This document shows, one piece after another, positions 36,011 to 52,936 of a stretch of 64,000 nucleotides of DNA (the stretch's first letter is position 1; every line of letters starts with the position of its first letter). The position numbers and the translations under genes were made by a program. Where the stretch lies: contig JASKOM010000010.1 of the NCBI GenBank assembly GCA_030152305.1, positions 10,797-74,796 on the forward strand. The letters are read 5' to 3'. The DNA is from Campylobacterota bacterium. GTDB lineage: Bacteria > Campylobacterota > Campylobacteria > Campylobacterales > Thiovulaceae. The notes under the pieces are model-generated. The model made no database searches. It had not been told where the DNA came from and worked only from the letters and a program-made list of their open reading frames with translations.

Positions 36011-38560
36011 ATGAAAATTTTGCTTTACAATCAAAATCCTGTTGTTGAAAGGCTGGTTGTTTTAAGTGCCAAAAAAAGTGGGGATAAAGTTATCAATACA
36101 AGAAGTCTTGACGAACTTATTCCAGAAGAAGTAGATTTACTTTTAATCGATGATGATGTTTTTATCATTGATGAAAATTCTTTTAATGTAATTAAAAGTA
36201 AAATAAAATTTAAAAAAAGCTGTTTAATTATTTCACGAAATAGTCATGTTTCAAAAAATGATTTTGATGATACTTTACAAAAACCTTTTTTACCAACAGA
36301 TTTAGTTGCAGAATTAGAAAAAATGAAAAAAGCTTCTGAAGAAGCTAAAGTTCCAGAAGAAAGTCCTATCGATGGGCTTGATTTTGACAGTTTAAGTAAA
36401 ATTGATTCTATTGAAAAAAATAATCAATCACAAATTACAGAAGAATTAAATTTAGATGGACTTCTCGGAGATTATGATTCTGATAATGACAATAGCCAAA
36501 ATATAAATTCTGGTCATTTAGATAATGATGATAATATTAAGTTGTCATTAGATGATTTAGATTTAGACAAAGATATAACACCATTATCACATATAACAGA
36601 AAATAATTCTTTGAAAAATAATGTTCCTCAAGAACAAGTTTTGTCAAAAACAAATGATCAAGATTTAGAATTAGATTTAGCTTTAAAAGAGTTAGAAACA
36701 GATGATCTTAAAAAATCAACTTCCGAATCAGTCGTTACCTCATCGACAGTTTTAAATTCTATAACAACAAAAGATAATCAAGAAATTTCACCTGTATCAA
36801 TTATTCAAGATGATGATTTCGAAGTTGACTTAGCTTTGCAAGAACTTGACGAAGAAACAAAACCAACTCAAACAGTTCAAGCTAAAAAAGTAGATTTATC
36901 GATTGATGATGAATTAGATGATTTAGAAAAAGAGATGATTCAACTTAATAACGAAGACGAATTATTACTCGCTCCGAAAGTCGAAAATGTTCAAACTAAA
37001 AAAGATGAATTAGATGATTTAGAAAAAGAGATGATTCAACTTAATAACGAAGACGAATTATTACTCGCTCCGAAAGTCGAAAATGTTCAAACTAAAAAAG
37101 ATGAATTATCGATTGATGACGAATTAGATAATTTAGAAAAAGAACTTGCAAAGCTTGATTCAATTGAAAAAGAAAATGCTGATTTTGTTTCTAATATTCA
37201 AACTACTAAAGTCGCAACTAACGAAACTAAACAAGAAATGTCTTTTATTAATGATGATATTGATTTAAATATCAAAGATCTTGATAATGACGATGAAATT
37301 GAGTTAATTACTCCAGAAATCAAGATTGATATCGATGAAGTCGAAACTCCAAAAGTTGAAATCGTTGAAAAAATAGTCGAACCAAAACAAGAAGTCGAAA
37401 CTCCAAAAGTTGAAATCGTTGAAAAAATAGTCGAACCAAAACAAGAAGTCGAAACTCCAAAAGTTGAAATCGCTGAAAAAATAGTCGAAACAAAACAAGA
37501 AGTCGAAACTCCAAAAGTTGAAATCGCTGAAAAAATAGTCGAACCAAAACAAGAAATCGAAACTCCAAAAGTTGAAATCGCTGAAAAAATAGTCGAACCA
37601 AAACAAGAAATCGAAACTCCAAAAGTTGAAATCGCTGAAAAAATAGTCGAACCAAAACAAGAAGTCGAAACTCCAAAAGTTGAAATCGCTGAAAAAATAG
37701 TCGAACCAAAACAAGAAATCGAAACTCCAAAAGTTGAAATCGCTGAAAAAATAGTTGAATCAAAACAAGAAGTCGAAACTCCAAAAGTTGAAATCGCTGA
37801 AAAAATAGTTGAATCAAAACAAGAAGTTGAAACTCCAAAAGTTGAAATCGCTGAAAAAATAGTTGAATCAAAACAAGAAGTCGAAACTCCAAAAGTTGAA
37901 ATCGTTGAAAAAATAGTCGAACCAAAACAAGAAATCGAAACTCCAAAAGTTGAAATCGCTGAAAAAATAGTCGAACCAAAACAAGAAATAGAAAGTTCAG
38001 TTTCTCTTGAAACTGTTGGTGCAGTTGCTTTAGTTGGTGCAGGAATCGGTGCAATGGCTTTAATGTCTTCAAAAGAACAAAATGAAAAAGTTGAAATAAA
38101 AGAAATAAAATCAGAACCTAAACAGGAATATAAATTGAACTTAAAACCTAAAGATAGATTTGAAATTGATAAAGAAGCAGATTCTCTTGATAAAATTTCC
38201 GAAGTTTCAATTGGTAAAGCCGTCGGACAAATTATTGAAGAACCAGTTATCGAAACTCCAGTAATTGAAGAACCTGTTATCGTTAAAACTGAAGAATTAA
38301 AAAAAGTTGATGCAAAAATTGAAGAACAACAAACCGTTGAAATTCAATCTTTGTCATCGTTAGTCAAAGAAAGTGAGCACAAAATAGAACCAAAAATCGA
38401 ACATGAATCTAAGGTTCAAGAAATAAAAATCGAATCTGATAAAAAAGAGAGCGATCTTGAAACGATTATTGCTCTTTTAAAACAGCTTGATTCTGTTGGA
38501 CTTAAAAAAGTTTTAAGTGGAATGGAACTTAATATTTCTATAAAATTTAAGGAGATTTAA
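36011..38560 (+). CDS. Highly acidic poly-E/repeat protein with a pseudo-receiver N-terminus and one TM segment
   Basis: 849 aa. The N-terminus is CheY-like (DLLLIDDDV...LQKPFLPTDLV). It has long D/E-rich sequence, 12 tandem 18-aa repeats and the TM segment VGAVALVGAGIGAMALM. It sits directly upstream of gmk. Confidence 0.8.
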   Translation: MKILLYNQNPVVERLVVLSAKKSGDKVINTRSLDELIPEEVDLLLIDDDVFIIDENSFNVIKSKIKFKKSCLIISRNSHVSKNDFDDTLQKPFLPTDLVAELEKMKKASEEAKVPEESPIDGLDFDSLSKIDSIEKNNQSQITEELNLDGLLGDYDSDNDNSQNINSGHLDNDDNIKLSLDDLDLDKDITPLSHITENNSLKNNVPQEQVLSKTNDQDLELDLALKELETDDLKKSTSESVVTSSTVLNSITTKDNQEISPVSIIQDDDFEVDLALQELDEETKPTQTVQAKKVDLSIDDELDDLEKEMIQLNNEDELLLAPKVENVQTKKDELDDLEKEMIQLNNEDELLLAPKVENVQTKKDELSIDDELDNLEKELAKLDSIEKENADFVSNIQTTKVATNETKQEMSFINDDIDLNIKDLDNDDEIELITPEIKIDIDEVETPKVEIVEKIVEPKQEVETPKVEIVEKIVEPKQEVETPKVEIAEKIVETKQEVETPKVEIAEKIVEPKQEIETPKVEIAEKIVEPKQEIETPKVEIAEKIVEPKQEVETPKVEIAEKIVEPKQEIETPKVEIAEKIVESKQEVETPKVEIAEKIVESKQEVETPKVEIAEKIVESKQEVETPKVEIVEKIVEPKQEIETPKVEIAEKIVEPKQEIESSVSLETVGAVALVGAGIGAMALMSSKEQNEKVEIKEIKSEPKQEYKLNLKPKDRFEIDKEADSLDKISEVSIGKAVGQIIEEPVIETPVIEEPVIVKTEELKKVDAKIEEQQTVEIQSLSSLVKESEHKIEPKIEHESKVQEIKIESDKKESDLETIIALLKQLDSVGLKKVLSGMELNISIKFKEI
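36908..37099 (+). repeat. 2 x 96-nt tandem duplication (32 aa: DELDDLEKEMIQLNNEDELLLAPKVENVQTKK)
   Basis: Identical units start at 36908 and 37004, with a partial third unit after 37100. Confidence 0.85.
37337..37984 (+). repeat. 12 x 54-nt in-frame tandem repeat (18 aa: E[VI]ETPKVEI[AV]EKIVE[PST]KQ)
   Basis: Counted from the sequence and translation. Variant units occur in runs (V/I at residue 2, A/V at residue 10, P/S/T at residue 16). Confidence 0.95.
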
Positions 38561-38562
38561 TT

Positions 38563-39174
38563 ATGAATAGAGGACGAATTTTAATTGTTTCTGGTCCAAG
38601 CGGTTCAGGAAAAAGTTCAGTAATTAATTATTTATTGGCTGAATTAGAAAATGCTGTTTTGTCTGTTTCGACAACTTCGCGAAAAATACGAGATCGAGAA
38701 ATTGACGGTGTCGATTATAATTTTGTAACTCGCGAAGAATTTATTAAATTAATTAAAGAAGATAAATTTCTTGAATACGAAGAAGTTCATGGAAATTTAT
38801 ATGGCTCACGACGAGATTTAATCGAAGATGCCCTTGAATTTGGCAAATTGTTAATTTTTGATGTTGATACTCGCGGAATGGCTTCGATTAAAAAATTTTT
38901 TCCTGATGTTACTGTTACGGTTTTTATTACAACTCCGTCTCGTGATATTCTCGAAGAACGATTAATAAAACGAGGAACAGAAAATAAAGACTCGATAAAA
39001 AAAAGATTAGTTAATGCTGTTGAAGAAATGAAAGCATTGTCAAATTTTGATTATTTTGTTGTTAATGATAATCTCGAAAAAGCAAAAGCTGATGTTTTTC
39101 AAATTGCTAAATTAACTGAATATAAACCGTCGAAATCGCTAACTTCGGCTTTAATTGAAATATGGGCATTATAG
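38563..39174 (+). CDS. gmk: Guanylate kinase
   Basis: P-loop GPSGSGKSS, TTSRKIRDREIDGVDYNFV. Confidence 0.9.
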   Translation: MNRGRILIVSGPSGSGKSSVINYLLAELENAVLSVSTTSRKIRDREIDGVDYNFVTREEFIKLIKEDKFLEYEEVHGNLYGSRRDLIEDALEFGKLLIFDVDTRGMASIKKFFPDVTVTVFITTPSRDILEERLIKRGTENKDSIKKRLVNAVEEMKALSNFDYFVVNDNLEKAKADVFQIAKLTEYKPSKSLTSALIEIWAL

Positions 39175-40484
39175 AAAATTTATCTGTTGCGATTCTTTCA
39201 GCTGGTGCTGGAACTCGCATGAAATCGCAATTACCAAAAGTTCTTCACGAATTGGCTGGAATTCCAATGGTTCATTATGTTGTTCGAGAAGCTCAAAAAA
39301 TCTCGAATGATGTAAATATAATCGTTGGTCATCGAGCCGATGAGGTCAAAAAATCGATTGAAAATAAATTCGAAAATATAAATTTTATTCAGCAAGATTT
39401 AGAAAATTTTGCTGGAACTGGTGGAGCTTTGCGAGATTTGAATCCAAAAAATAAATGGGTTTTAATTATAAATGGCGATACTCCGCTTGTTAAACACGAT
39501 GAATTAATCAAATTTATTAATAGTCGCGATGAAAATATTAATATTATTCTTGGTGTTCTCTCTTTGGAAAATCCCAAAGGTTACGGCAGAGTCGTTACTT
39601 CGAATGATGGCAAAATTATTAAAATTGTCGAAGAACGAGATGCTTCGGAACATGAAAAAAATATAAATTTAGTAAATAGCGGAGTTTATTTAATTCTCGC
39701 TGATTTATTAAAAAAATATGTTTATTTATTAAATAATGAAAATAGCCAACGAGAATTTTATTTGACTGATATCGTCGCTCTTGCAAAAAATGACGGAATT
39801 GAAACTTCGATTTATAAACTATCTGAAAAAATATTCAAAGGTGTTAATAATCGAGTTGAATTATCTGATGCCGAAGAAATTATTCTTGATCGAATTCGAG
39901 AAAAAATTATGTTAAACGGAACGACAATTCATTTGCCGAAAACAGTTTATATCGAAGAATCGGTCGAATTTATCGGTGAAAACGAAATAGAATCTGGAGT
40001 TTCGATTTACGGAAAAAGCAAAATAATAAATTCTATTATTAAATCTGGTTCAGTTATTGAAAGCTCATATATTGAAAAATCATCAATTGGAGTTATAGCT
40101 CATATTCGCCCTGATTCTAAAATCGTCGATAGCAAAGTCGGAAATTTCGTCGAAGTCAAAAAATCAAAATTAACTGGTGTCAAAGCTGGTCATTTAAGTT
40201 ATTTGGGCGATTCTGAAATTGACACGGATACAAATATTGGAGCTGGTGTAATTACAGCAAATTATGACGGCAAAAATAAATATAAAACAAAAATTGGCAA
40301 AAATGTTTTTGTCGGAAGCGATTCTCAATTAATCGCTCCTGTTGAAATTCCTGATAATGTCATGATTGGTGCAGGTTCAACAATTCCTAGTCGAACTCAA
40401 ATTGAATCTGGTTCTTTAGTAATTTCTCGAGGTAATGTTCGAATTATTAAAAACTTCTTTTATAAATTCTTCACAACAAAATAA
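39162..40484 (+). CDS. glmU: Bifunctional UDP-N-acetylglucosamine pyrophosphorylase / glucosamine-1-phosphate N-acetyltransferase
   Basis: N-terminal LSAGAGTRMKS nucleotidyltransferase motif and C-terminal left-handed beta-helix hexapeptide repeats. Confidence 0.9.
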   Translation: MGIIENLSVAILSAGAGTRMKSQLPKVLHELAGIPMVHYVVREAQKISNDVNIIVGHRADEVKKSIENKFENINFIQQDLENFAGTGGALRDLNPKNKWVLIINGDTPLVKHDELIKFINSRDENINIILGVLSLENPKGYGRVVTSNDGKIIKIVEERDASEHEKNINLVNSGVYLILADLLKKYVYLLNNENSQREFYLTDIVALAKNDGIETSIYKLSEKIFKGVNNRVELSDAEEIILDRIREKIMLNGTTIHLPKTVYIEESVEFIGENEIESGVSIYGKSKIINSIIKSGSVIESSYIEKSSIGVIAHIRPDSKIVDSKVGNFVEVKKSKLTGVKAGHLSYLGDSEIDTDTNIGAGVITANYDGKNKYKTKIGKNVFVGSDSQLIAPVEIPDNVMIGAGSTIPSRTQIESGSLVISRGNVRIIKNFFYKFFTTK

Positions 40485-40496
40485 AATAAAAATATA

Positions 40497-40537
40497 TACC
40501 TCATCGATATATATATTACTTAATTATTGATGAGGTA
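40497..40537. terminator. Hairpin formed by an inverted pair of the ACCTCATC/GATGAGGT motif between convergent glmU and the 40542 gene
   Basis: TACCTCATC (40497-40505) and GATGAGGTA (40529-40537) form a perfect 9-bp stem with a 23-nt AT loop. Confidence 0.5.
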
Positions 40538-40541
40538 AAAA

Positions 40542-41144
40542 TTAAAACAATTCAGCTGTTTTTTTAATTGCAGAAATATAAGCATTGAGAATATTTTTGT
40601 AATTATGCATAAGTTGTTGCAATTCTTTGCTATCTTGAGTTGAAAACGGATTAGCAATAACACAAGGAATAGACAACGAAGCTAATTTATCCAAAACTAT
40701 GCCCTCACGATCAACTTTGCCACCTTTTTGAATAATGCCTAAATCTTTTAAACCAGTATTTTTAATTAACATAGATTGAAAAATTTCAGCACTTTTACGA
40801 GCTATCGAAGAAGAGTTATGTCTAGTTTTGATACCTTTATCAATTACATAATCAGACGTGCATTCAAATGCAATTAATATATCAAATTTGTCTTGTTCGA
40901 CAGTATTAACAATATTTTCAATGAGATTTTTTTTAATAATATGAACCATAATATTTTGTTCTCTTGAAAGAGCGATTGTAATTTCAGAAGCAAATTTTTG
41001 ATACACAAGTAATTGCTGAAGATCGTTGTTTGCTTTACCAATTTGTGTCATCTCGCGAAGCACGATACCAATTTTTATCATAAAAATACTTTCTTTAAAA
41101 TATAAATATATATATTTTTTTTGCTGTAAAATGAATCCCATCAT
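40542..41144 (-). CDS. Hypothetical protein. Layout is faintly reminiscent of an Amidase_3 fold lacking the catalytic residues.
   Basis: The ORF probably starts at the internal MIKIGIV (about 41081). ...DILIAFECTS...SSIARKSAEIFQSML...IPCVIANPFSTQDSKEL... parallels the order of Amidase_3 motifs, but the Zn ligands are not evident. Confidence 0.3.
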   Translation of the reverse strand: MMGFILQQKKYIYLYFKESIFMIKIGIVLREMTQIGKANNDLQQLLVYQKFASEITIALSREQNIMVHIIKKNLIENIVNTVEQDKFDILIAFECTSDYVIDKGIKTRHNSSSIARKSAEIFQSMLIKNTGLKDLGIIQKGGKVDREGIVLDKLASLSIPCVIANPFSTQDSKELQQLMHNYKNILNAYISAIKKTAELF

Positions 41145-41203
41145 AAAGTGATGGGTTGATAATTAAAAGTTAATTTAATTAATATTTTTAGGTTAAATAA
41201 CCA

Positions 41204-41776
41204 TTAAATTTTAGAAAAAATAAATGTTTCCATTTCAGCAACGATTTCATCGATTGAAGATTCACCGCTAATTTTCTTAAGAACTAATTTATCTTCATAG
41301 AATTTTTCTATAAAAGATAAAGGATCTGTATAAACTTTCATACGATTGTTAAAAACTTCGATTTTATCGTCATCACCTCTAGCTCGTCCAAGAACTCGAT
41401 CTTTAGCTGTTTGTTCTGAAACAACAACTTCAATAACAGATAAAAGAGCAATTTCAAATTCATTAGCAAGAATATTATCAAGAGAAATCATTTGTTCTTC
41501 ACTTCGAGGAAAACCATCGATTAAAATAATTTCATGAGAAGAATTTTTAATAGCTTTGATAACAGTATTTAAAACAATATCAAGAGGACAAAGAAGACCT
41601 TTAGAAACAAAAGAATTAATCAAAGTTCCAAGATTAGAACCGCTTTTAATTTCATCTCTAAGAAGATTACCAGTTGAATAATGAGCGATTTTATCGCTGT
41701 TTCTAGAAGCAATTCGTTCAGCATCCGTAGTTTTACCAGAACCTGGAGCCCCAATAATAAGAAATAACTTTTTCAT
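41204..41776 (-). CDS. adk: Adenylate kinase
   Basis: P-loop [14 protein letters not shown], and a short LID (no zinc-finger Cys). Confidence 0.9.
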
Positions 41777-41899
41777 GTTAATTTTTAACTTTCATAAATT
41801 TTGATTTAACAACTGGAAATTCTATCAAATTAAAATTAAAAAAGTTTATTATAAAATAAACAAAGTTTTAAGCTTTGAAATAATATGAAAAATTTTTAA

Positions 41900-43366
41900 G
41901 TGAGATATAATTTTCTCAAAACAATAAGGCTAATTATGGGTATTGAAGATTTAAAAAATATAAAACTTCCTCAAAGTTCATCAGCAAAAACAGCTGAAAC
42001 AAACAATAATCAAACTGTTGCAAAAAGTTCAGGAACATCTAATCAGACTTCTAAAAATAATTCTGTTACAAGTGATTCAAAACAAGCACCAACGAGTTCA
42101 TCAGGTGGAATAAAAAAAGTATCATCAAGTGTAAAAACAGCTGAAACGACAAATAATCAAACTGCACCAAATAGTTCAGTTATAAGTAATTCAAAACAAC
42201 AATCAATAAATTCTGTTCAACCGACAAATAATCGAACTACATCAAATAGTTCAGTTTCAAGTAATTCAAAACAACAATCAACAAATTCTGCTCAACCGAC
42301 AAATAATCGAACAGAAACAAAGCTATTAAATAAAGGTTGGCAAAATATAACATTAAAAATAACAACTTTATCACCAATTCATATTGGTAATGGTGAAGTG
42401 TATGAACCAACTAATTTTATTATAGATAAAGATAATATTTTGTATGGATTCAAAGAAGAGTTATTTATACGAGCATTGCCTCCAGTTCAGATTAATGGCT
42501 ACATGGAAAGTGCAAAAAAAGGCTTTATAGCTTTACATCAATTTACAAAAGCAAACAGTGAAATTGCAAAAAAAGTAGCAAATGATAAAGTCAAAGTTAA
42601 AACAGGTTTATCAAATGGTTATGAAGATAAATTAAAAAATCCTAAAGCTAATTTTCATATTTATAAAACATCAAAAACAATGTCTAAAAATGAGCAGTCT
42701 GAACTTCAAGCTTATATTCCGGGAAGTTCTTTTAAAGGAGCTATGCTAACTTCATATTTAGAATATTTATTCAAAACAGAATATAAATCAGATAAAAACA
42801 GATTTGAGGCTTTAAGTAGAAATTTTTTCGATCTAAAAGGAGATCAATTATTTAGATATTTAAAAGTAAGCGACAGTTTAGTTGAGAAATCTTCTTCAAC
42901 TATTGGATATGCCGTTAATCGAAGTAGATCTGGTGAATGCGAAGATAGTCAAATGGCAAATATCGTTGAAGCAATTGATAAAAATTCTATTTTTAAAATA
43001 GATATTAGATATGACAGCAATGTCTTAAATATTAATACGATTTTACAATCGTTAAATCAACATTTTAAACCTATTTATGATTCTGTTATTCATGAATTTT
43101 CAGATTGTTCTTCTCCAACTGTTGTATCTAATCTTAAAGTTATGAAATTTGATTCGCCTAATAAATTTATACTTAGAGTTGGTAAATATTCTGGAGCTAG
43201 ATCTATTAGTGTTGCTGGTGTCAGAGAAATTAAAATTAAAACAGGTAGAACTACTTCTGAAAAGCAAGACGAAGAAACGACATCGTGGTTATTTGCAAAT
43301 ACTCCAAAAGATATTACTAATTTAGAACCTTTTGGATGGCTTTTAATCGAAATAGAATCCAAATAA
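41900..43366 (+). CDS. Orphan RAMP-superfamily protein (Csm5 / Cas7-like) with an N-terminal S/T/N/Q-rich low-complexity extension
   Basis: RAMP hallmarks in canonical order: ITLKITTLSPIHIGNGEVYEPTNFIIDKDNILY, YIPGSSFKGAMLTSYL, YLKVSDS, LRVGKYSGARSISVAG, and C-terminal EPFGWLLIEI. The likely start is ATG at 41936, preceded by AAGG. Confidence 0.5.
   Translation: MRYNFLKTIRLIMGIEDLKNIKLPQSSSAKTAETNNNQTVAKSSGTSNQTSKNNSVTSDSKQAPTSSSGGIKKVSSSVKTAETTNNQTAPNSSVISNSKQQSINSVQPTNNRTTSNSSVSSNSKQQSTNSAQPTNNRTETKLLNKGWQNITLKITTLSPIHIGNGEVYEPTNFIIDKDNILYGFKEELFIRALPPVQINGYMESAKKGFIALHQFTKANSEIAKKVANDKVKVKTGLSNGYEDKLKNPKANFHIYKTSKTMSKNEQSELQAYIPGSSFKGAMLTSYLEYLFKTEYKSDKNRFEALSRNFFDLKGDQLFRYLKVSDSLVEKSSSTIGYAVNRSRSGECEDSQMANIVEAIDKNSIFKIDIRYDSNVLNINTILQSLNQHFKPIYDSVIHEFSDCSSPTVVSNLKVMKFDSPNKFILRVGKYSGARSISVAGVREIKIKTGRTTSEKQDEETTSWLFANTPKDITNLEPFGWLLIEIESK
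42168..42317 (+). repeat. 2 x 75-nt tandem repeat encoding SNSSV(I/S)SNSKQQS(I/T)NS(V/A)QPTNNRT(T/E)
   Basis: Near-identical units begin at about 42168 and 42243, inside the low-complexity N-terminus of the RAMP-like ORF. Confidence 0.8.
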
Positions 43367-43483
43367 TTTTTATTATTTTTTTGTTTTTTTCTTATATAAC
43401 TTACTCCGATTTTATGATATTTTTAAAATTTACAAAGAGATCTTTAAGTTATAATTCGAGTAATTTTTATAGAGGTATGGAAA

Positions 43484-43972
43484 ATGAGCGATAATTGGGT
43501 AAGTGTCAAAGAATTTTCACAGATTACTGGAATGGATTTAGAAACTATTCATGGAATGATAACCCGAAAAGAAATTAACTTTAAAGAACGAGACGGAGTT
43601 ATATATATCGACACCGAACAAGGCAGTAAATTAATAGTCCCAGTTGCAATGAGATCTCTAGCAAAAAGTGGAAAATCTACTGAAAGTGTTAATATTAATT
43701 TTGTTGAAAAAACTATTGCTACAATACTAAATCTTCATGAGAAAGTTGTTGCTTCAAAAGATGAAACTGTTAGTGTTTTAAAAGAAGAAAATATGTTTCT
43801 CAAAGAAGCCCTTATTTCCATTCAAGAAATTCTCGAAGATGAACGAAAAAATTTACGAGTTTTAACAGAACAACTAGATAATTGCCAAGAAGAATTAAAA
43901 TTTGTAAAGAAAAAATATAAACTTATGTGGGGCAAAGTCATCGAAGATTATAAACCAAAAAGTAAATTCTAA
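43484..43972 (+). CDS. Helix-turn-helix (excisionase/MerR-like) DNA-binding protein with a C-terminal coiled coil
   Basis: The N-terminus WVSVKEFSQITGMDLETIHGMITRKEINFKERDGVIYID is typical of HTH_17/excisionase-type domains. The C-terminal half is heptad-rich. Confidence 0.5.
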   Translation: MSDNWVSVKEFSQITGMDLETIHGMITRKEINFKERDGVIYIDTEQGSKLIVPVAMRSLAKSGKSTESVNINFVEKTIATILNLHEKVVASKDETVSVLKEENMFLKEALISIQEILEDERKNLRVLTEQLDNCQEELKFVKKKYKLMWGKVIEDYKPKSKF

Positions 43973-43981
43973 ATTTTATCC

Positions 43982-44004
43982 GCCTCGTAATTCGAGGCAT
44001 TTTT
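43982..44004 (+). terminator. Rho-independent terminator
   Basis: GCCTCG-taatt-CGAGGC followed by ATTTTT. Confidence 0.65.
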
Positions 44005-44057
44005 AACAACTCTCTTTTTTATAATCTATTTCTCTTAACTTAAGGACTCCAATTTAT

Positions 44058-45641
44058 ATGTCATCTATTTTTAATTATTCTCAACATAATTTTTACAAAT
44101 TTTTTTTTATTAATTCTGTTTCGATTTCTATTTTATTTGCAGGAACAAACAGTGATTATATTGGCTGTGGTTCTGATGAAACAATTGCCAGAGAAGAACT
44201 TGCAAAAAGTATTTCAATTACAGTAAAAACTTCGTTTGATAAACAAGAAGCTATAACAGATGATAAAGCAACAAGATATTTATCTTCTGTTTCTAATCAA
44301 TCTACAAATCTTAACCTCATCGATGTCGTTATTCAAAAACAAAACGATAATCAAATTTGTGCCATTGTTTCAAAAGATTCTTTAAGAAAAAGTCTTGAAA
44401 GTGCAAAAATTGAAATTAAAGATTTTAAATCTTCAATGCTGATTGGTTCTCCAGAACAAAAACGAAAAACTTTAAATCAAAAAATAGAAATTTGTGAAAG
44501 TGGTATTAAACTTGCTTCGTTATTTGCAGATGCACAAGCTGGAACACTTTTTCAAAATAAATTAACCGAATTTCAACAAATTATTGATAATGATAATTTT
44601 CAAAGTGTTAAATTTAATATTGAAGGTGGATCAGGACTTGAAATTTTTATAGACGGTAATAATCAATCACATAAAATAAATGAATCAATTTCTATTTCAT
44701 CTGGTTCTCATCAATATAAAATTAGTGGAACAAATATTTGTGATATTAACGGTAATTTCGATATTTATAAAAATGAAAATATTATTATTAATAATATTTC
44801 TGTTGCGGAATATATTCGTCCAAAGGTTTCTTTTACGACAAATCAAAATGTTAGTTATGTAAAATTAAATGTTGATGGCGATGAGGTTGCTGTAAATAGA
44901 GAAGTAATTTTAAAAAAATGTTCTGGAAATATTCCATATAGTGCATCATATAACGATGGAACTTATACAGATTTAGCAAGAGGTTCTGTTGAAAATATTG
45001 AACCAAATATAAATAAAACGATTCATTTACCATTTTTATCAATTGGTGATATAAAAGCAATGAAAAATGAAATAGACACTTATATGAATGGTCAAAGAAT
45101 TGAATTTTTATATAGTTACAGCATGAAAACAATTTCGGCTAATGACCAAAAAGATTACGATTTAAAAAAACATACAAATAATTTTGAAATAAATTTATTA
45201 ACACATAAACGATTTTTTAGATACGGTTATGGTTTTATGATAGGAGCTGATAATTTTTCAGAACCAACTAATAAATTAATAGAAAGTTACATGTATGGTG
45301 CAATTCAATTTTCATCTTTTGGACAATATGATTTACCGTTACGAATAGGTTCTGTTTCTTTGATTCCATATTTAGGTATGAAAATTGGTGTTGGTTTTCA
45401 CGAATATATAACAGCCGATGGAGAAAAAGCTTGGAATCATCCAGCTGAAGGTGATGACGATTATAAATATGTTCCAGATAAATATGAATTCGATTTTGAA
45501 AGAGATTTATGGTTAATGAAACCTATTGTTGGAATAGATTTTATAATTAGTAAAGGTTTTGCTTTTAAAATTTATGGCGAACAAAGTTTAAAAATAGACA
45601 AACGATTACATATTGGCACAGGATTAAGTGTAGAATTTTAA
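44058..45641 (+). CDS. Outer-membrane protein with an N-terminal LPP20-like domain and a C-terminal beta-barrel
   Basis: Signal sequence. LPP20-like segment: GCGSDETIAREELAKSISITVKTSF. Alternating beta pattern at the C-terminus, ending ...GTGLSVEF (terminal Phe). Confidence 0.5.
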   Translation: MSSIFNYSQHNFYKFFFINSVSISILFAGTNSDYIGCGSDETIAREELAKSISITVKTSFDKQEAITDDKATRYLSSVSNQSTNLNLIDVVIQKQNDNQICAIVSKDSLRKSLESAKIEIKDFKSSMLIGSPEQKRKTLNQKIEICESGIKLASLFADAQAGTLFQNKLTEFQQIIDNDNFQSVKFNIEGGSGLEIFIDGNNQSHKINESISISSGSHQYKISGTNICDINGNFDIYKNENIIINNISVAEYIRPKVSFTTNQNVSYVKLNVDGDEVAVNREVILKKCSGNIPYSASYNDGTYTDLARGSVENIEPNINKTIHLPFLSIGDIKAMKNEIDTYMNGQRIEFLYSYSMKTISANDQKDYDLKKHTNNFEINLLTHKRFFRYGYGFMIGADNFSEPTNKLIESYMYGAIQFSSFGQYDLPLRIGSVSLIPYLGMKIGVGFHEYITADGEKAWNHPAEGDDDYKYVPDKYEFDFERDLWLMKPIVGIDFIISKGFAFKIYGEQSLKIDKRLHIGTGLSVEF

Positions 45642-45648
45642 CGATTTA

Positions 45649-45667
45649 GCGGGTTAATTTAACCCGC
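45649..45667. terminator. Bidirectional hairpin between convergent genes
   Basis: GCGGGTT-aattt-AACCCGC. Confidence 0.55.
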
Positions 45668-45677
45668 ATATAAATAA

Positions 45678-46988
45678 TTAGCAATTAAATAATTTATTTT
45701 TTGCCATTTCGAAACTATTAAAAAGATGATCATTAATTAAATCAAAACTTAAATCTTCTCGTTTTGATAAATGTTCATGCCATAAACTCAAAGAAATAAA
45801 AACATCTTCAAGACAAACGACTGCTTCTTTTCCAATTTCAGAAATATGTCGCCCTTGTGATAAAAGTCGTTCGCCCATATCGTCTAAACCTTTTGTTACC
45901 GCTTTTGCCATTGGATAAATACTTAATATTTGAGATAAATCAGCAAATAAATGAACAATTATTTCCAACGAATCAATCGATATATTTTCTTTAGTATTTT
46001 TATTGCTATTATATAAAGCCTCTTTAAATTTCACCAAAAGATCTTCGAAAATTTTCATATCAACTTGATCCATAAAAATATATCTTTTATTGCTTTGACC
46101 TCGTTTTCTTCGAATATAATTTTTTATATCCTCTCTTGAAAAATCGTTAGCAGAAGATATTTTATATTCGAATTCTTCTATTAATGCTTCATCTTCTATT
46201 ACATTATGTTCAGATACGAAATTATTTAATATTTCTAAACGATCATAATTTAAATATTCAAGAGCGAAATCTTCATATTCATCAAGTTTTTCATTTTCAT
46301 TTGAAATTAAATTAACTTCAAATTCGATCATATTTTCATTGACATAAAAATTACATATTTTTTGAATTTGTTTAAGTTCAAAAACAAATTCTGGATTAAA
46401 CCTTGTTTCTAGTTGAAAAGCTAGAAATTCATTATTTTCAGTAACTGTAATTTTCGAAGAAATACCGCGATCGATTTGTGAAAGAGCGAGACTATAAATA
46501 GCTTGAACGATTTCGTGTTGATTTGTTCGTCTCGCATTTGAATAATTTTCCCAAAAAAGATATAAGTTAGAAACCAAACTTAAGTCATAAATTATTTTTC
46601 GTTCAAAATCACTAATATCAATTCGTTTATAAATTAAAATATCGAGATAACTTCTAAGTCTTAAATTAAAAAATTCTGATTTGAAAGGTTTGATAAGTTG
46701 GTCTGTATACCATTTTTTTAATCTTTGTCGCTCTTTTGAAACAGAAACTATTAACAAGTCTCTATTTTGTTTATATGTATCAAAAGCTATTTTATCAAAA
46801 TCTGAACTTACAAAAAGAATATGAATTTTTTCTGTTTGTAAAATTTTATTAGCATCTGTCTCATTATTTGCATCGATAATATTCAAGATTTTATCAAAGT
46901 CCGTATTTGTTGCTTTATAATCTTCTAACATAAAAATTAAATGATTTAATTCATTTTCGATAGAATCAACAACTAAAATATTAAACAT
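45678..46988 (-). CDS. Cytoplasmic pseudo-receiver protein with a helical (HPt-like?) C-terminus
   Basis: N-terminal CheY-like layout (ILVVDS...IHILFVSSDFD...LIKPF) that lacks the acidic pocket and phospho-acceptor Asp. The C-terminal helical bundle is unassigned. Confidence 0.4.
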   Translation of the reverse strand: MFNILVVDSIENELNHLIFMLEDYKATNTDFDKILNIIDANNETDANKILQTEKIHILFVSSDFDKIAFDTYKQNRDLLIVSVSKERQRLKKWYTDQLIKPFKSEFFNLRLRSYLDILIYKRIDISDFERKIIYDLSLVSNLYLFWENYSNARRTNQHEIVQAIYSLALSQIDRGISSKITVTENNEFLAFQLETRFNPEFVFELKQIQKICNFYVNENMIEFEVNLISNENEKLDEYEDFALEYLNYDRLEILNNFVSEHNVIEDEALIEEFEYKISSANDFSREDIKNYIRRKRGQSNKRYIFMDQVDMKIFEDLLVKFKEALYNSNKNTKENISIDSLEIIVHLFADLSQILSIYPMAKAVTKGLDDMGERLLSQGRHISEIGKEAVVCLEDVFISLSLWHEHLSKREDLSFDLINDHLFNSFEMAKNKLFNC

Positions 46989-47141
46989 GTATTCCTCGTT
47001 ATTATTTAAAGTTTATATCATTTTATCAAAAATTATGATAATCTAGTATTTATCATAATAAATTTATTAATTAATTAAAGAACTTAAATTTAATGACTAT
47101 TGCAATATATATTTATCAAATTCAAATAAAAAAGGTTAATT

Positions 47142-48202
47142 TTGTTTAAATTATTTCTTACCTCATCGCTATCAATTTCAATTATGTGGAGTTCATCAAT
47201 TTCTGGAGTTGGTTTTGGTTCAACAATTGAACAAGCGAAAAAAGAAGCACTTGCTGATGTCATTTCAAATATTGGAGGAATGGTTTCATCCTCTTTTTCA
47301 CAAACTCAAATTATAAATGGAAATAATATAGCTGAAAATAATCGAGAACGAATAATTAAAGTTGATCAAAATTATCCGTTATTAATGCCAACATTTTCTC
47401 AACCCGAACAAGAAAATGAGCAATATAAAATTACGGCAACAATTGATGGCTTAAAATCAGCTAAGCAATATATTAATCAAATGGCAATATTAGATAAAGG
47501 TATAAAACTTGAAATAGCTGAAGCAGAAAAACAGCAAGATACTCGTTTAAAAATAGAACTTTATGAAAATGTTATTTCTCAAATGACTGAATTTGAAAAA
47601 TATTCAACAATGGCAAGTATTCTTGATATAAAAAACACACCAATTTTAATGATTTCTCCGTCTGTAATCGAAAATGAAATAGCAAAATTATCTTTTCAAA
47701 ATAACAATAACGATCTCATAAAATATGATCGAGAAGAATTTGTTGTTAAATTAAAATCTGATCGTTCTGATTCTAATAGAGTTTTGCCACTTGGCGAACA
47801 TTACGAACTTTTTTTGCAAGTTTCACATCGTGGCTATTTTTATATGATAAATCATTCAATTAATGACAACAACGAAAGTTATTCATATCTTGTTGAATTT
47901 GATGAAAATAGCCAAAATATTGGCAAATTTATTACTGAAATTAAAAATAATCAAATAAATGGTTTTCAATTGGTAAATTCGAAGTTATCGAACCTTTAGG
48001 TAATGAATATATTGAAATTGTTGTTTCTCAAAAGCCTTTTAAATCACTGCCTAAATTTAAAAAAGTTACTAAATATGATGAGGTAGTTTATATGCTTGAA
48101 GGTAGAGCATCAAAAAATATACGAGAACTTGAAATAAATAGAGCCGTTAAAAAATTAAATGAAAAAGTTGCTAAATTTTATTATAAAAGTATTGCGAATT
48201 AA
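47142..48202 (+). pseudogene. LPP20-like / DUF4384-like secreted protein interrupted by a frameshift
   Basis: Frame A (47142-47999) ends at TAG. Frame B opens at 47951 and continues to 48202: SNKWFSIGKFEVIEPLGNEYIEIVVSQKPF...KSIAN*. That is the expected continuation of the domain. Confidence 0.55.
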
Positions 48203-48234
48203 TTTAAAAATAAATTAAATTAATTATTGGCTAA

Positions 48235-48243
48235 TGGTAGAAT
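48235..48243 (+). promoter_or_regulatory. Extended -10 TGGTAGAAT upstream of typA
   Basis: 33 nt upstream of the TTG start. GGAGA ribosome-binding site at 48264-48268. Confidence 0.45.
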
Positions 48244-48275
48244 TCCAGAAATAGAAATATATTTGGAGAAAATTT

Positions 48276-50081
48276 TTGCAAAAAATTAGAAATATAGCAG
48301 TTATTGCCCATGTTGACCACGGCAAAACAACACTTGTTGATGGATTATTAAGACAATCAGGGACATTTTCTGCTCACGAAGCTGTTGGCGAACGAGTTAT
48401 GGATTCAAACGACTTAGAACGAGAACGAGGAATTACAATTCTTTCGAAAAATACAGCGATTAATTATCAAGGTATGAAAATTAATATTATCGATACACCT
48501 GGACATGCTGACTTCGGTGGTGAAGTTGAACGAGTTCTTAAAATGGTCGACGGTGCTTTATTAGTCGTTGATGCTTATGAAGGTGTTATGCCACAAACAA
48601 AATTCGTTGTTAAAAAAATGTTAGGTTTCGGCTTAAAACCGATTCTTGTTGTTAATAAAATTGATAAACCAACTGCTGAACCTGAACGAGTCGTTAATGA
48701 AATTTTTGACTTATTTGTTCAAATGAATGCAACTGATGATCAATTAGAATTTACGACTGTTTATGCTTCAGCAAAATCAGGAATTGCAAAATTAGATTTA
48801 AAACATGAAAGTTCAAATTTTGTTCCACTTTTTGAAACGATTGTTAAATCTATTCCAGAACCAACAGGTTCAGCTGAAAATCCAACACAATTACAAGTTT
48901 TCACTTTGGATTATGATAATTATGTTGGTAAAATCGGAATTGCTCGAGTATTTAACGGAACAATCGAAAAAGGTCAAACAATATTATTAGCAAAAGCTGA
49001 TGGCGAAAAAGTTAAAGGTCGAGTTTCAAAATTAATTGGTTTCCATGGTCTTCAACGAAAAGAAATCGATCGAGCTGAAGCGGGTGATATCGTTGCCGTT
49101 GCTGGTCTTGAAACTATCGATGTTGGCGATTCTATCGTTGATATTAATAATCCAATGCCACTTGATCCAATGCACATCGAAGAACCAACTATTTCGGTTG
49201 TTTATGCTGTTAATGATTCTCCACTTGCTGGACTTGAAGGCAAAAGTGTAACTTCGAATAAAATTCAAGAACGATTATTTAAAGAAATGCAAACAAATAT
49301 TGCTATGAAACTTGAAATCGTTGGCGAAGGCAAATTCAAAGTTTCAGGTCGAGGCGAATTACAATTAACAATTCTTGCTGAAAACATGAGACGAGAAGGT
49401 TTCGAATTTGCAATTTCACGACCAGAAGTTATTACTCGAGAAGTTGATGGAGTTCATCTTGAACCGTTTGAACATCTTGTTATTGACATTCCAGAAGAAT
49501 TTAGCGGAACAATTATCGAACGATTAGGTCGCCGAAAAGCTGAAATGACTTCAATGGTTCCAATGGGTGTCGGTCAACAACGAATCGAATTTGAAATTCC
49601 TGCAAGAGGCTTAATCGGTTTTAGAGGTCAATTTTTAACAGATACAAAAGGTGAAGGTATCATGAACCATTCATTCTTAGAATATAGACCATATTCTGGT
49701 GCTGTTGAAAGTCGATCAAACGGTGCTTTAATTTCTATGGAAAATGGCGATGCGGTAGCTTATTCATTAAATAATATTCAAGAACGAGGAGTTTTATTTA
49801 TTGGACCGCAAACAAAAATTTATGTAGGAATGATTATCGGAGAACATAGCCGACCAAATGACTTAGATGTTAATCCAGCAAAAGGAAAACATTTAACAAA
49901 CATGAGAGCTTCAGGTTCAGATGATGCAATTAAACTTGTTCCACCAAGAAATTTAAGTCTTGAAAAAGCTCTTGAATGGATTGAAGATGACGAATTATTA
50001 GAAATTACTCCATTAAGTATTCGAATTCGAAAAAAAGAACTCGATGCATCAAAACGAAAAAGATCTTCTAATAAAAAATAA
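48276..50081 (+). CDS. typA: Translational GTPase TypA/BipA
   Basis: [31 protein letters not shown], and the BipA-specific C-terminal domain. Confidence 0.95.
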
Positions 50082-50131
50082 ATTATATTAATATCTGTTT
50101 TTATAAAATTTTAAAATGATCTATTAAATGG

Positions 50132-50140
50132 TGGTAGAAT
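50132..50140 (+). promoter_or_regulatory. Extended -10 TGGTAGAAT upstream of rppH
   Basis: 31 nt upstream of the GTG start. It shares AATGGT(GG)TAGAATTCCA with the typA promoter. Confidence 0.45.
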
Positions 50141-50170
50141 TCCACCAGATCAATTTATAGGTGAAAACAG

Positions 50171-50656
50171 GTGTTACATACAAAGGTAGAAAAAAGATAC
50201 AGACCTAATGTAGCTGCCATTGTCCTTTCATCAAAATATCCAGATAAGTGTGAATTGTTCATAGCAAAAAGAACAGATGTTGCTGATGCTTGGCAATTTC
50301 CACAAGGAGGTATCGACGAAGGAGAAAGTCCAAAAGAGGCTTTATTTCGTGAATTACAAGAGGAAATTGGAACTAATAACATAGAAATTGTTGGTAAATT
50401 TCCAAGGTGGATTTCTTATGATTTTCCATCAGCTATTTCTGAACGAATGTATCCTTATGATGGACAAAAACAGCAATATTATTTGGTTAGGCTAAAAAAC
50501 GGAACAAAGATCGATTTAAATTTAGGCAAACCTGAATTTAATGAATATAAATTCATCGCATTAAATTCTGTTTTCGAACATATTACTTATTTTAAAAGAC
50601 ATGTGTATCGAAAAGTATTATCCTATTTTATTAAAGAGGGTTATTTATTATGTTAA
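50171..50656 (+). CDS. rppH: RNA pyrophosphohydrolase (Nudix)
   Basis: [10 protein letters not shown]-terminus and Nudix box [22 protein letters not shown]. Confidence 0.85.
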
Positions 50657-51870
50657 TTGTTCAAAAATATGGTGGAACAAGTGTTGGTTCGCTAGAAAGA
50701 ATTGAAAAAGTAGCAGAACGAGTCATTAAAACAGCATCTGAAGGTCATAAAATTGTTGTTGTCGTTTCAGCAATGAGTGGCGAAACAAATAAATTAATTT
50801 CATATGCTAAATATTTTTCGCCTATTCCTAAAGAAAGCGAAATGGATATTTTAATGAGTTCAGGCGAACGAGTTACTTCGGCACTTCTAGCTATCGCACT
50901 TCATGCTAAAGGTTATCAATCTATTTCATTAAGTGGTCGCGGTGCTGGTATTGTTACAGACAGTAATTTCACAAAAGCACGAATCGAAACTATAGATCCA
51001 AATCCTATTTTATCAGCCGTTAATGATGGCAATATAATCGTTATCGCTGGTTTTCAAGGTGTCGATGAACACGGTCGAGTAACAACTCTCGGTCGTGGTG
51101 GTAGCGATTTATCAGCTGTTGCTATTGCTGGTGCTATCAATGCTGATTTATGTGAAATTTATACTGATGTTGATGGTGTTTATACGACAGATCCACGAAT
51201 TGAACCAAAAGCTAAAAAATTAAATGTTATTAGCTATGACGAAATGCTTGAAATGGCTAGTTTGGGAGCAAAAGTTCTTCAAACTCGATCTGTTGAAATG
51301 GCTAAAAAATTAAATGTTAATCTTGTTACGAGATCAAGTTTTAATGAAAACGAAGGAACTTTAATTACTCACGAGGATAAAATTATGGAAAAACCTTTAG
51401 TTAGTGGTATCGCTCTTGATAAAAATCAATCAAGAGTTGGACTTATTGGTGTTGTTGATAAACCAGGTATCGCTTCAGAAATATTTGGTGCTTTGTCATC
51501 GTCAAATATAAATGTTGATATGATCGTTCAAACTAGTGGTGGCGGTCTTGGTGAAAATATTACGAATATCGATTTTACAGTTAATCGCGATGAACTTGCA
51601 AAAGCTGAAAAATGTATTCATAAATTCAAAGATTCTCACGAAATTCGAGATATTCAAATTAATAGCAATATTGCAAAAGTTTCTGTTGTTGGTGTTGGAA
51701 TGAAATCTCACACTGGTGTAGCTTCTAATGCTTTTACAACAATGGCAAAAGAAAATATAAATATCATGATGATCAGCACAAGCGAAATCAAAATTTCAAT
51801 GGTTATCGATGATAAATATAGCGAATTAGCTGTTCGAGCTTTACATTCTGCTTATCAACTCGATAAATAA
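50650..51870 (+). CDS. lysC: Aspartate kinase
   Basis: [22 protein letters not shown], and two C-terminal ACT domains. The start overlaps the rppH stop. Confidence 0.95.
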
Positions 51871-51899
51871 TTAATTTTTTAATAAATAAAATATAAATT

Positions 51900-51928
51900 A
51901 CCTCATCGCATAAATTAATCGATGAGGT
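51900..51928 (+). terminator. Terminator-like hairpin built from an inverted ACCTCATCG / CGATGAGGT pair after lysC
   Basis: Perfect 9-bp stem with an 11-nt loop, followed by CTAATTTTC. Confidence 0.6.
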
Positions 51929-52090
51929 CTAATTTTCATTCTTCAAAATAACTACGTGAACAAATAATAATTAATCGATTTTCTAAGATATTTGAAATAA
52001 ATAATATTATTAAAATATTTAAGTTATATAAAAATATATACGATATTCGAAAATAAACAAATTAAACTAAAAAATAAATTAGGAGCAAAA

Positions 52091-52747: not shown

Positions 52748-52750
52748 TCC

Positions 52751-52936
52751 ATGAAAATATCTGCTTTTTTATTATCAGCAATATTTTTATTTTTAGGTTG
52801 TAGTTCAAATGAAGAAATTGTTCAAAAACCTGAATTAAATTATTATCAAAAACGAGAAATAAATCAATATCAACAATACAATTCTAAAAAAGCAATGGAA
52901 GATTTAGAAGATTCTGTTAAAAATAGCGAACAATGA
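52751..52936 (+). CDS. Small lipoprotein (61 aa) of the lpp20 operon
   Basis: Signal peptide plus lipobox FLGC. It is tightly packed between two LPP20-type genes and overlaps the next start. Confidence 0.5.
   Translation: MKISAFLLSAIFLFLGCSSNEEIVQKPELNYYQKREINQYQQYNSKKAMEDLEDSVKNSEQ

Follow-up and report, generated by a model that had tools for sequence, protein, structure and literature searches.

A solo csm5 gene in a Thiovulum-related campylobacterotal bacterium probably encodes a subunit of a type III-A Csm complex whose operon broke into three pieces

The genes of class 1 CRISPR effectors are almost always clustered. In the 64-kb stretch of DNA analyzed here (64,000 nt; hereafter, the window), which derives from a low-GC, Thiovulum-related campylobacterotal host, an ORF for a RAMP protein stands apart from any other cas gene. 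Its product probably belongs, as Csm5, to a type III-A Csm complex whose operon broke into three chromosomal pieces. Most likely, the protein is a normal subunit of a system dispersed to an unusual degree rather than an orphan put to new use. An earlier note on this sequence had suggested an exapted, stand-alone RNA-binding RAMP module, a reading that is not supported because complementary partner genes, themselves without a csm5, occur elsewhere in the same run (SRR24719468). The protein itself is an ordinary Csm5, and the unusual part is the organization of the genome around it.

The window ORF is a genuine, intact Csm5, a group-7 RAMP protein of type III-A. In profile searches of the kind the earlier note had proposed, its scores exceeded the curated cutoffs for the Pfam RAMPs family (E = 1.6e−8, 35.7 bits; cutoff, 22.1) and for TIGR01899 Csm5 (47.3 bits; cutoff, 38.3), the PADLOC Csm5 models matched nearly end to end over residues 152–481 (E = 1e−20), and a sequence search against the PDB returned Csm5 chains. 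The AlphaFold model of the RAMP core (amino acids 131–476; positions 42326–43366, + strand) has a pLDDT around or above 90 for most residues. When the predicted structure was compared with the PDB using Foldseek, also as the note had proposed, the best 29 matches were all Csm5 chains (probability 1.00, TMt 0.46–0.74), with E-values of 3e−14 to 1e−9 for the core and target-normalized TM scores of 0.68–0.74 to the Csm5 proteins of S. epidermidis and L. lactis. Curated profiles, PDB sequence matches, and fold matches thus bear out the Csm5-type identity that the note had read from motifs.

The ORF runs from 41900 to 43366 on the + strand, where it is GTG-initiated and encodes 488 amino acids, and all the motifs quoted in the earlier note are found in its translation. 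The ATG at 41936 is more likely to be the true start than the GTG at 41900, because a Shine-Dalgarno sequence (AAGG, 41926–41929) lies 6 nt 5′ of the ATG, whereas the GTG has no Shine-Dalgarno sequence before it and overlaps a −10 box (TATAAT, 41906–41911). The same ATG was used by an independent gene call (P0001). The likeliest csm5 coding sequence is therefore 41936–43366 (+ strand; 476 amino acids), and the 12 in-frame codons preceding it (41900–41935, + strand) are probably untranslated. The divergent adk/csm5 intergenic region (41777–41935), which holds this TATAAT, the Shine-Dalgarno sequence, and a 28-nt tandem repeat detected by TRF at 41850–41911, contains a candidate csm5 promoter, for which a transcription start near 41918, 3′ of the GTG, would be predicted; the promoter can only be called putative because promoter-like matches around csm5 did not exceed those in shuffled controls (15 matches vs 17.2 expected).

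The first 130 amino acids (41936–42325, + strand) form a disordered extension composed of 60% S/T/N/Q, with 11% K/R and 5% D/E, for which AlphaFold predicted no secondary structure and a pLDDT below 50. Within the extension lies a 75-nt tandem duplication encoding 25-amino acid units (42132–42356, + strand): TRF reported 2.3 copies of period 75 with 89% matches at 42140–42312, and the repeat search placed copies of the family (D2) at 42132, 42207, and 42282 and older copies, which have since diverged, at 41985 and 42018. The STNQ-rich, low-complexity N-terminus and its 25-amino acid repeat, as described in the earlier note, were thus confirmed. The note had also considered such a terminus unusual for RAMP proteins, and on this point it did not hold, since the nearest in-operon homologues carry shorter versions. 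The Csm5 of Candidatus Thiovulum stygium has a low-complexity N-terminal extension of approximately 58 amino acids that shares an alignable “KKVSS” segment with the window protein; the K/N-rich N-terminal extensions of two other homologues (P0003 and P0005) are unrelated to it. The window tail is about twice as long as the tails of its relatives. The disordered tail existed before the proposed relocation of csm5 and was lengthened in this organism by tandem duplication.

By analogy, the tail may act as a flexible docking arm for host factors. In S. epidermidis, a disordered segment of Csm5, IDR2, recruits the housekeeping nuclease PNPase (eLife 2022, PMC9762709), and a docking role for the window tail is plausible because a disordered Csm5 segment serves that purpose there. 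However, IDR2 lies inside the protein as a short loop with positive charge (residues 310–320; PMC9762709), whereas the window tail is N-terminal, 130 amino acids long, and polar rather than strongly charged. The tail is a further sign that Csm5, whose place in the complex is the exposed 3′ end, is a preferred site for added modules; in this clade, these are either N-terminal disordered tails or C-terminal coiled coils.

The earlier note had stated that the 64 kb contain no other cas gene and no CRISPR array, and this was upheld by every search made. Only csm5 was found in the window, whether the queries were the complete Cas protein sets of four related loci (tblastn) or iterated HMMs for cas10, csm2–5, cas6, cas1, and cas2, so remnants of further cas genes were rejected. 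No spaced direct repeats were found in the window or in either of the partner contigs described below, scanning the window against Rfam gave nothing at gathering thresholds, and the T. imperiosus CRISPR repeat GTTCCGTTTCCCTTATAGGGATTGCAAAAC had no match in the window with three or fewer mismatches. The flanking genes of the T. stygium csm operon (mgtE, carB, AIM24, flgH, and purE) are likewise absent from the window. The position that the note had given, between adk and an HTH gene, is correct: the divergent upstream neighbor is adk (adenylate kinase, Pfam ADK; 41204–41776, − strand), which is outside the system, and the downstream neighbor is a DUF3972 gene (PF13118, E = 5e−40; 43484–43972, + strand) that also matches an HTH model weakly. 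The only terminator-like hairpin on the + strand lies 3′ of the latter (43982–43998), and csm5 and the DUF3972 gene are possibly co-transcribed.

The genes that would complete the effector were found in run SRR24719468. One Logan contig (SRR24719468_16; L091) carries cas10-csm4-cas6 between SpoIIE/ccsBA and GATase/queA, and another (SRR24719468_2595; L093) carries csm2-csm3 between an EAL gene and rpsT-prfA-secG; csm5 is adjacent to neither group. A third contig of the same run (SRR24719468_953) reproduces the csm5 region of the window base for base over 15.4 kb (window 37960–53366), including both csm5 flanks. The corresponding NCBI contigs measure approximately 83 kb (csm5), 213 kb (cas10-csm4-cas6), and 331 kb (csm2-csm3). 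Most of the partner proteins exceeded the NCBIfam equivalog cutoffs: Cas10/Csm1 scored 301 bits (TIGR02578; cutoff, 170), Csm4 67.5 bits (TIGR01903; cutoff, 55), Csm2 34.6 bits (cutoff, 30.6), and Csm3 175.9 bits (cutoff, 90). Cas6 was identified by Pfam Cas6_C (50.5 bits; cutoff, 23) and by a PADLOC match, its NCBIfam score (50.3) being under the cutoff of 58.65. Cas10 has a GGDD cyclase motif at residue 461 and no HD region, and the catalytic Asp of Csm3 is kept in “GGIDSPV.” The coding sequences of cas10, csm4, and cas6 follow one another seamlessly, with an overlap at one of the two junctions and a gap of 9 nt at the other. Each of the six proteins is full length and shares about 51–60% identity with the nearest Thiovulum orthologue: against the T. 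stygium operon, the values are 52% for cas10 (P0070), 59% for csm2, 60% for csm3 (P0192), 52% for csm4, and 53% for csm5, and Cas6 is 58% identical to the product of the cas6 gene located 3′ of csm5 in two other loci (L043 and L092). The three loci are exactly complementary, and no subunit is present twice. In approximately 88 kb covering the window and the two partner contigs, we found no CRISPR array, cas1/cas2, or cOA-responsive effector, and the genes flanking the three fragments gave no CARF, SAVED, or further PADLOC matches.

The agreement of shared run, composition, codon bias, and complementarity, rather than physical linkage, leads us to infer that the three contigs come from one genome. 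Their GC content is 27–29%, as in the window, and the tetranucleotide correlation between the partner contigs and the second half of the window (r = 0.92–0.94) is higher than that between the two halves of the window (0.87). This signature cannot separate close relatives, because the correlation with a related T. stygium-type locus (L002) is also high (0.86–0.93). All six proteins are singletons, each found once in NCBI and once in Logan. The preference of csm5 for AGA as the arginine codon, which the earlier note had pointed out, is present (9 AGA vs 4 CGA, compared with 33% AGA in the 25 other window genes; Fisher p = 0.014) but is not unique, as at least 57% AGA occurs in four other window genes. 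As a sign of foreign origin, the bias was rejected, being modest and shared with several unrelated window genes. It is more useful as a trait common to most of the other csm genes: csm5, csm2, csm3, and csm4 show it clearly, cas6 shows it more weakly, and cas10 lacks it; the six genes pooled have approximately 63% AGA.

Comparison with related loci indicates how exceptional this arrangement is. Among approximately 80 related loci with upstream DNA, from many phyla, csm5 always directly follows cas10-csm2-csm3-csm4, and the window is the sole exception. There is no conserved “orphan” RAMP family or solo clade, because none of these loci contains another solo copy, nor do the 68 protein homologues include one; the window Csm5 is a singleton, and its next relative (54% identity) is encoded within an operon. 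The neighborhood comparison that the earlier note had recommended thus gave a solo state that is not conserved, with homologues residing in operons. The nearest relative is the T. stygium Csm5 (P0002/P0312; loci L002 and L011), whose core is 53–54% identical to that of the window protein and whose retention of conserved sites is similar. In T. stygium, however, csm5 closes an intact cas10-csm2-csm3-csm4-csm5 operon, whereas the window gene stands alone and encodes a tail enlarged by the 75-nt duplication. The full order cas10-csm2-csm3-csm4-csm5-cas6 is intact in L092 and L043, and T. stygium has the cas10–csm5 part of it.

Of the columns conserved at ≥80% among 64 homologues, the window Csm5 keeps 46 of 51, and the in-operon T. 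stygium Csm5 keeps 44 of 49. A relative-rate test of the window protein against this in-operon orthologue was not significant with five of six outgroups; the remaining outgroup (P0023; chi2 = 4.4) suggests slightly faster change in the window copy. With approximately 90% of conserved sites retained at approximately 46% divergence from the nearest relative, these comparisons argue that the solo csm5 is under no relaxed constraint.

The ancestral order was presumably cas10-csm2-csm3-csm4-csm5-cas6. From this arrangement, cas10-csm4-cas6 would have remained together, csm2-csm3 would have relocated beside rpsT-prfA, and csm5 would have relocated between adk and the DUF3972 gene. In solved Csm complexes, Csm5 caps the Csm3 filament at the crRNA 3′ end (bioRxiv 10.64898/2026.03.30.715313), and by homology the Csm5 supplied in trans would still assemble in this position. 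By analogy with these complexes, the Csm complex is thus expected to assemble from trans-encoded subunits; it would sense target RNA, which Csm3 would cleave, and would signal via the cyclase of Cas10 (GGDD, without an HD domain).

Alternatively, Csm5 might work independently of a Csm complex, for instance as a regulator or sensor that binds RNA, and the tail might provide it with a novel functional module. This reading would fit a gene that has no cas neighbor in the 64 kb, is preceded by an intergenic region of its own, and is possibly co-transcribed with the DUF3972/HTH gene, and it would fit a protein that is intact, under constraint, and equipped with a tail roughly twice the length of those of its relatives. 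It is nevertheless improbable: the partner genes in the same run are perfectly complementary to csm5, neither the 68 protein homologues nor the approximately 80 loci include another solo copy or an orphan family, the residues of complex-forming Csm5 proteins are kept at a rate equal to that of the in-operon orthologue, and the tail already existed before the relocation. The earlier note had named type III genes elsewhere in the genome without a csm5 as the finding that would make this gene a displaced ordinary subunit, and cas10-csm4-cas6 and csm2-csm3 are essentially such genes, although that they share its genome is deduced.

It is also unlikely, if somewhat less so, that the three contigs represent separate strains or species from a mixed sample and that csm5 is an undecayed remnant of a lost type III-A locus. 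The contigs are joined by composition and run, not by physical linkage, the sample may be a metagenome in which composition does not separate close relatives, and neither the window nor the two partner contigs hold an array or adaptation genes. Independent decay, however, is not expected to leave fragments that complement one another exactly and have diverged from T. stygium to the same extent, nor does a relic account for an intact ORF with 90% of conserved sites kept and no rate acceleration despite approximately 46% divergence; each protein is, moreover, a singleton with the same NCBI-plus-Logan footprint. False junctions around csm5, created in assembly or binning, could be suspected in a source that is probably a MAG and beside low-complexity tandem repeats inside and near the gene, yet they are hardly credible, as the run's independent Logan assembly matches the window exactly over the 15.4 kb that include both csm5 flanks and the coding sequences of cas10, csm4, and cas6 join seamlessly. 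A more far-reaching proposal, which we regard as doubtful, is that a long-resident type III-A effector lost its operon linkage altogether and now has its subunits expressed from three unlinked sites amid housekeeping genes, that the tail-bearing Csm5 became independently regulated, either as a limiting or switchable cap or through moonlighting with RNA decay, and that the system serves host RNA regulation rather than array-driven defence.

The split-operon reading, which we prefer, sets the window gene apart from known systems mainly by its location. The canonical type III-A Csm5 proteins (S. epidermidis 7uzz/8do6, L. lactis 6xn3, S. thermophilus 6ifk, and S. marcescens 9zs2) have the same RAMP core fold and similar sequence motifs, but the window gene lies alone, away from cas10 and csm2–4, and its 130-amino acid S/T/N/Q-rich tail is absent from those structures. 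Type III loci with trans-encoded parts (remote cas6, cas1-cas2, or arrays) likewise depend on genes or arrays elsewhere, and in the 10 kb flanking the T. stygium csm operon on each side, cas6, cas1/2, and arrays are missing; unlike in such loci, the core effector subunits themselves are here split into three loci amid housekeeping genes. A Csm effector divided in this way is absent from the approximately 80 loci, and a non-exhaustive literature search gave no precedent. Annotation tools that work locus by locus would list an “orphan” Csm5 and incomplete cas10 and csm2-csm3 loci, and would overlook a potentially complete system. Such scattering implies that the system was inherited vertically for a long time without being selected for transferability, and it provides a natural setting in which to ask how a multi-subunit effector maintains its stoichiometry in the absence of an operon.

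Each of the three csm fragments has its own upstream intergenic region. A shared regulatory motif among these regions was rejected, their similarity being no better than that of dinucleotide shuffles (10 of 60 as good). As a separate observation, the sequence AT[A/C]AATTTTGA is present upstream of all three fragments and is rare in the window (two matches); picked post hoc, it is a weak lead.

The open frame at 41900..43366 (+) has 488 codons counted from GTG, and its translation contains every RAMP motif quoted in an earlier sequence-only note, which had suggested that this orphan Csm5/Cas7-like RAMP could be an exapted CRISPR component. Judged from the sequence, csm5 probably starts at ATG 41936 and encodes 476 aa: this codon is preceded by a Shine-Dalgarno sequence, AAGG (41926–41929), and by TATAAT (41906–41911), an independent gene call (P0001) begins at the same ATG, and GTG 41900 overlaps the −10 box TATAAT and has no ribosome-binding site. 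The product matched Pfam RAMPs (E = 1.6e-8, over the cutoff), NCBIfam TIGR01899 "type III-A RAMP protein Csm5" (47.3 bits; cutoff 38.3), and three Csm5 models from PADLOC (E = 1e-17 to 1e-20), of which two aligned over nearly their full length. A phmmer search of the PDB returned Csm5 chains only. In an AlphaFold model based on 46 homologues, residues 131–476 were confident (pLDDT mostly >90), and the best 29 Foldseek matches in the PDB were, without exception, Csm5 chains from experimentally determined Csm complexes (lowest E, 3e-14; highest target-normalised TM, 0.74). The proposed similarity to Csm5 is thus supported by profiles, PDB sequences, and predicted fold, beyond a few motifs, and the gene is a previously undescribed Csm5 family member that is ordinary as a protein. 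It is flanked by adk (minus strand) on one side and on the other by a DUF3972 gene, which matches HTH domains weakly.

The gene also proved to be solitary within the window, as the earlier note had claimed. Only csm5 was recovered there, both by tblastn with the full set of Cas and ancillary proteins from four related loci and by HMMs, iterated over 90 loci, for cas10, csm2–5, cas6, cas1, and cas2; the window held no spaced direct repeats, no copy of the Thiovulum imperiosus CRISPR repeat, and no Rfam family. A protein search gave 68 homologues, the nearest being the Csm5 of Candidatus Thiovulum stygium (P0002, 54% identical; the remainder ≤40%). The gene is last in cas10-csm2-csm3-csm4-csm5 in the T. 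stygium-type locus, Nitratiruptor, Sulfurovum, Caminibacter, and a metagenomic contig. When a single genome was scanned for each species, 80 csm5 loci were added, with hosts ranging from Campylobacterota to Nitrosomonas and Desulfobulbales; five scanned loci were cut by contig ends and left unjudged, and csm4-csm3-csm2-cas10 lay directly upstream of csm5 in all those with readable upstream DNA. The window csm5 was the single exception to this operon rule, and because its product is a singleton, there is no conserved solo Csm5 family.

Several of the comparison loci had features of their own. In a Sulfurovum MAG (L007, 9221–10008), a nucleotidyltransferase gene (Polbeta/NTP_transf_2) and a 164-aa gene lie between csm4 and csm5; the two resemble an MNT/HEPN-type pair, and their position shows that additional genes can be accommodated at the csm4|csm5 junction in this clade. 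An AAA_21/AAA_15 ATPase gene (500–622 aa) followed by an unannotated 271–364-aa gene recurs beside campylobacterotal csm operons (L007, 2738–5426; L008, 7165–9859; L009, 11311–13628) and may be an ancillary module. Cas10 was called as three ORFs (HD, Csm1_B, and palm2) in Nitratiruptor sp. YY09-18 (L005, 5774–8140), and both csm3 and csm4 are split in two in C. concisus RMIT-O23 (L024); these are likely frameshifts or pseudogenes.

When columns conserved in ≥80% of the other 64 homologues were considered, the window Csm5 kept 46 of 51 and the in-operon T. stygium orthologue 44 of 49. In Tajima-type relative-rate tests, the window lineage showed no faster change with five of the six outgroups (chi2 ≤0.6) and marginally faster change with the sixth (chi2 = 4.4). 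By these measures, the window Csm5 behaves as a subunit that is as strongly constrained as its operon-encoded counterparts. The low-complexity, repeat-bearing N-terminus reported earlier was confirmed: residues 1–130 are 60% S/T/N/Q, had pLDDT <50 and no secondary structure in the AlphaFold model, and include the product of a 75-nt tandem duplication (42140–42312, 2.3 copies, 89% identity) with diverged older copies upstream. The T. stygium Csm5 has an S/N/Q/K-rich N-terminal extension of ~58 aa, in which a "KKVSS" segment can be aligned to the window tail; the homologues P0003 and P0005 have K/N-rich N-terminal extensions of ~45 aa, and many other clade members instead have C-terminal coiled-coil extensions of 110–240 aa. 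The tail is thus not unique to the solo Csm5: because in-operon homologues also bear extensions, it is older than the relocation, and tandem duplication has lengthened it in this gene. In experimentally determined complexes, the Csm3 filament ends in a Csm5 cap at the 3′ end of the crRNA (bioRxiv 10.64898/2026.03.30.715313), and S. epidermidis Csm5 has a disordered region through which PNPase is recruited and stimulated to mature the crRNA (PMC9762709). By analogy, the disordered tail could act as a flexible arm on which host factors dock.

The csm5 region was matched exactly over 15.4 kb by a contig of the independent Logan assembly of run SRR24719468, which argues against an assembly artefact at the csm5 junctions. 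A search with T. stygium Cas10 identified P0070 (52% identity, about the distance between the two Csm5 proteins) on another contig of this run (L091), in the order SpoIIE, ccsBA (−); cas10 (664 aa), csm4 (298 aa), cas6 (249 aa); glutamine amidotransferase, DUF5338, queA. With T. stygium Csm3, P0192 (60% identity) was found on a third contig (L093), in the order EAL-domain gene; csm2 (131 aa), csm3 (248 aa); unannotated 243-aa gene; rpsT, prfA, secG. The NCBIfam equivalog cutoffs were exceeded by Cas10/Csm1 (301 bits; cutoff 170), Csm4 (67.5; 55), Csm2 (34.6; 30.6), and Csm3 (175.9; 90), and the identity of Cas6 was supported by Pfam and PADLOC. The catalytic aspartate of Csm3 is retained in "GGIDSPV." The three loci are exactly complementary, with every subunit present once. 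The 243-aa gene (L093, 2612–3343 (+)), immediately 3′ of csm3 and 5′ of rpsT, has an internal repeat spaced 81 nt, matches no family, and is absent from the T. stygium operon.

The exapted stand-alone reading is therefore unsupported, because type III genes lacking csm5 are essentially what was found elsewhere, as cas10-csm4-cas6 and csm2-csm3 loci in the same run. Rather, it is likely that csm5 is part of a type III-A system that is unusually dispersed. That the fragments form one system is supported by their coherent identities to the T. stygium operon (cas10, 52%; csm2, 59%; csm3, 60%; csm4, 52%; csm5, 53%). Cas6 is 58% identical to the cas6 product encoded directly 3′ of csm5 in the intact operons of T. 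imperiosus (L043) and a further Thiovulum-type locus (L092), indicating the ancestral order cas10-csm2-csm3-csm4-csm5-cas6. L091 is seamless where csm2-csm3 and csm5 once stood: the cas10 and csm4 frames overlap, and the csm4-cas6 gap is 9 nt. GC-normalised tetranucleotide correlations of the two contigs with the second half of the window were 0.92–0.94, compared with 0.87 between the window halves, ≤0.6 for other Campylobacterota, and also 0.86–0.93 for a related T. stygium-type locus; GC content was 27–29%. The AGA preference for Arg previously noted in csm5 (9/13, vs 33% in other window genes) is common to most csm genes (csm2, 7/8; csm3, 10/13; csm4, 4/5; cas6, 5/8; cas10 lower, 8/21). All six proteins are singletons, occurring once in NCBI and once in Logan. 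The evidence that the three contigs come from one genome is strong but circumstantial; judged by its Cas proteins and composition, the organism stands closest to Thiovulum, in whose genomes CRISPRs have been reported (PMC9938260). A class 1 effector spread over three places among housekeeping genes is rare, and it is this, not the protein, that is unusual; non-exhaustive text searches found no published precedent for a Csm operon divided among three loci.

The T. stygium cas10-csm5 operon (L002/L011) lies between mgtE and AIM24/carB, and neither flank carries cas6, cas1/2, or an array within 10 kb. In T. imperiosus, repeat arrays (30–37 nt) flank the operon on both sides, and cas6 lies 3′ of csm5. 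Linkage seems to have been lost progressively in the Thiovulum lineage. The alignment of P0070 to the Cas10/Csm1 equivalog starts only at model position 218, which shows that this Cas10 lacks the HD region; its GGDD cyclase motif is retained. This combination is shared by the Thiovulum-type Cas10 proteins (~660 aa; L091, 5749–7743; L002, 5730–7718), and a Cas10 of this kind would need a cOA-activated effector. None of the csm fragments has a gene for a CARF, SAVED, or other known effector of the cOA pathway nearby, and the ~88 kb of the window and two partner contigs contained no CRISPR array, cas1/cas2, or cOA-activated effector.

The motif AT[A/C]AATTTTGA occurs in the 5′ intergenic regions of all three csm fragments (window, 41794–41804; L093, ~1170–1183; L091, ~5408–5421) and has only two occurrences across the 64 kb of the window; 5′ of csm2, it is part of a near-consensus promoter (TTGAAA-16 nt-TATAAT). 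The motif was picked post hoc, and pairwise tests of the three upstream regions were not significant. Elsewhere in the window, 36011–38560 (+) encodes a highly acidic 849-aa repeat protein with no Pfam match and a receiver-domain-like N-terminus, containing 12 near-perfect 54-nt tandem repeats (18 aa, "EVETPKVEIAEKIVEPKQ"; 37337–37994) and a perfect 96-nt duplication (36908–37099). Four large ORFs, at 28876–33273 (−, 1465 aa), 27244–28800 (−, 518 aa), 44058–45641 (+, 527 aa), and 45678–46988 (−, 436 aa), had no Pfam match, and the last two, the closest to csm5, had none in NCBIfam or PADLOC. The AGA fraction of Arg codons is raised (0.44–0.62) in the 1465-, 518-, and 527-aa ORFs, as in csm5.
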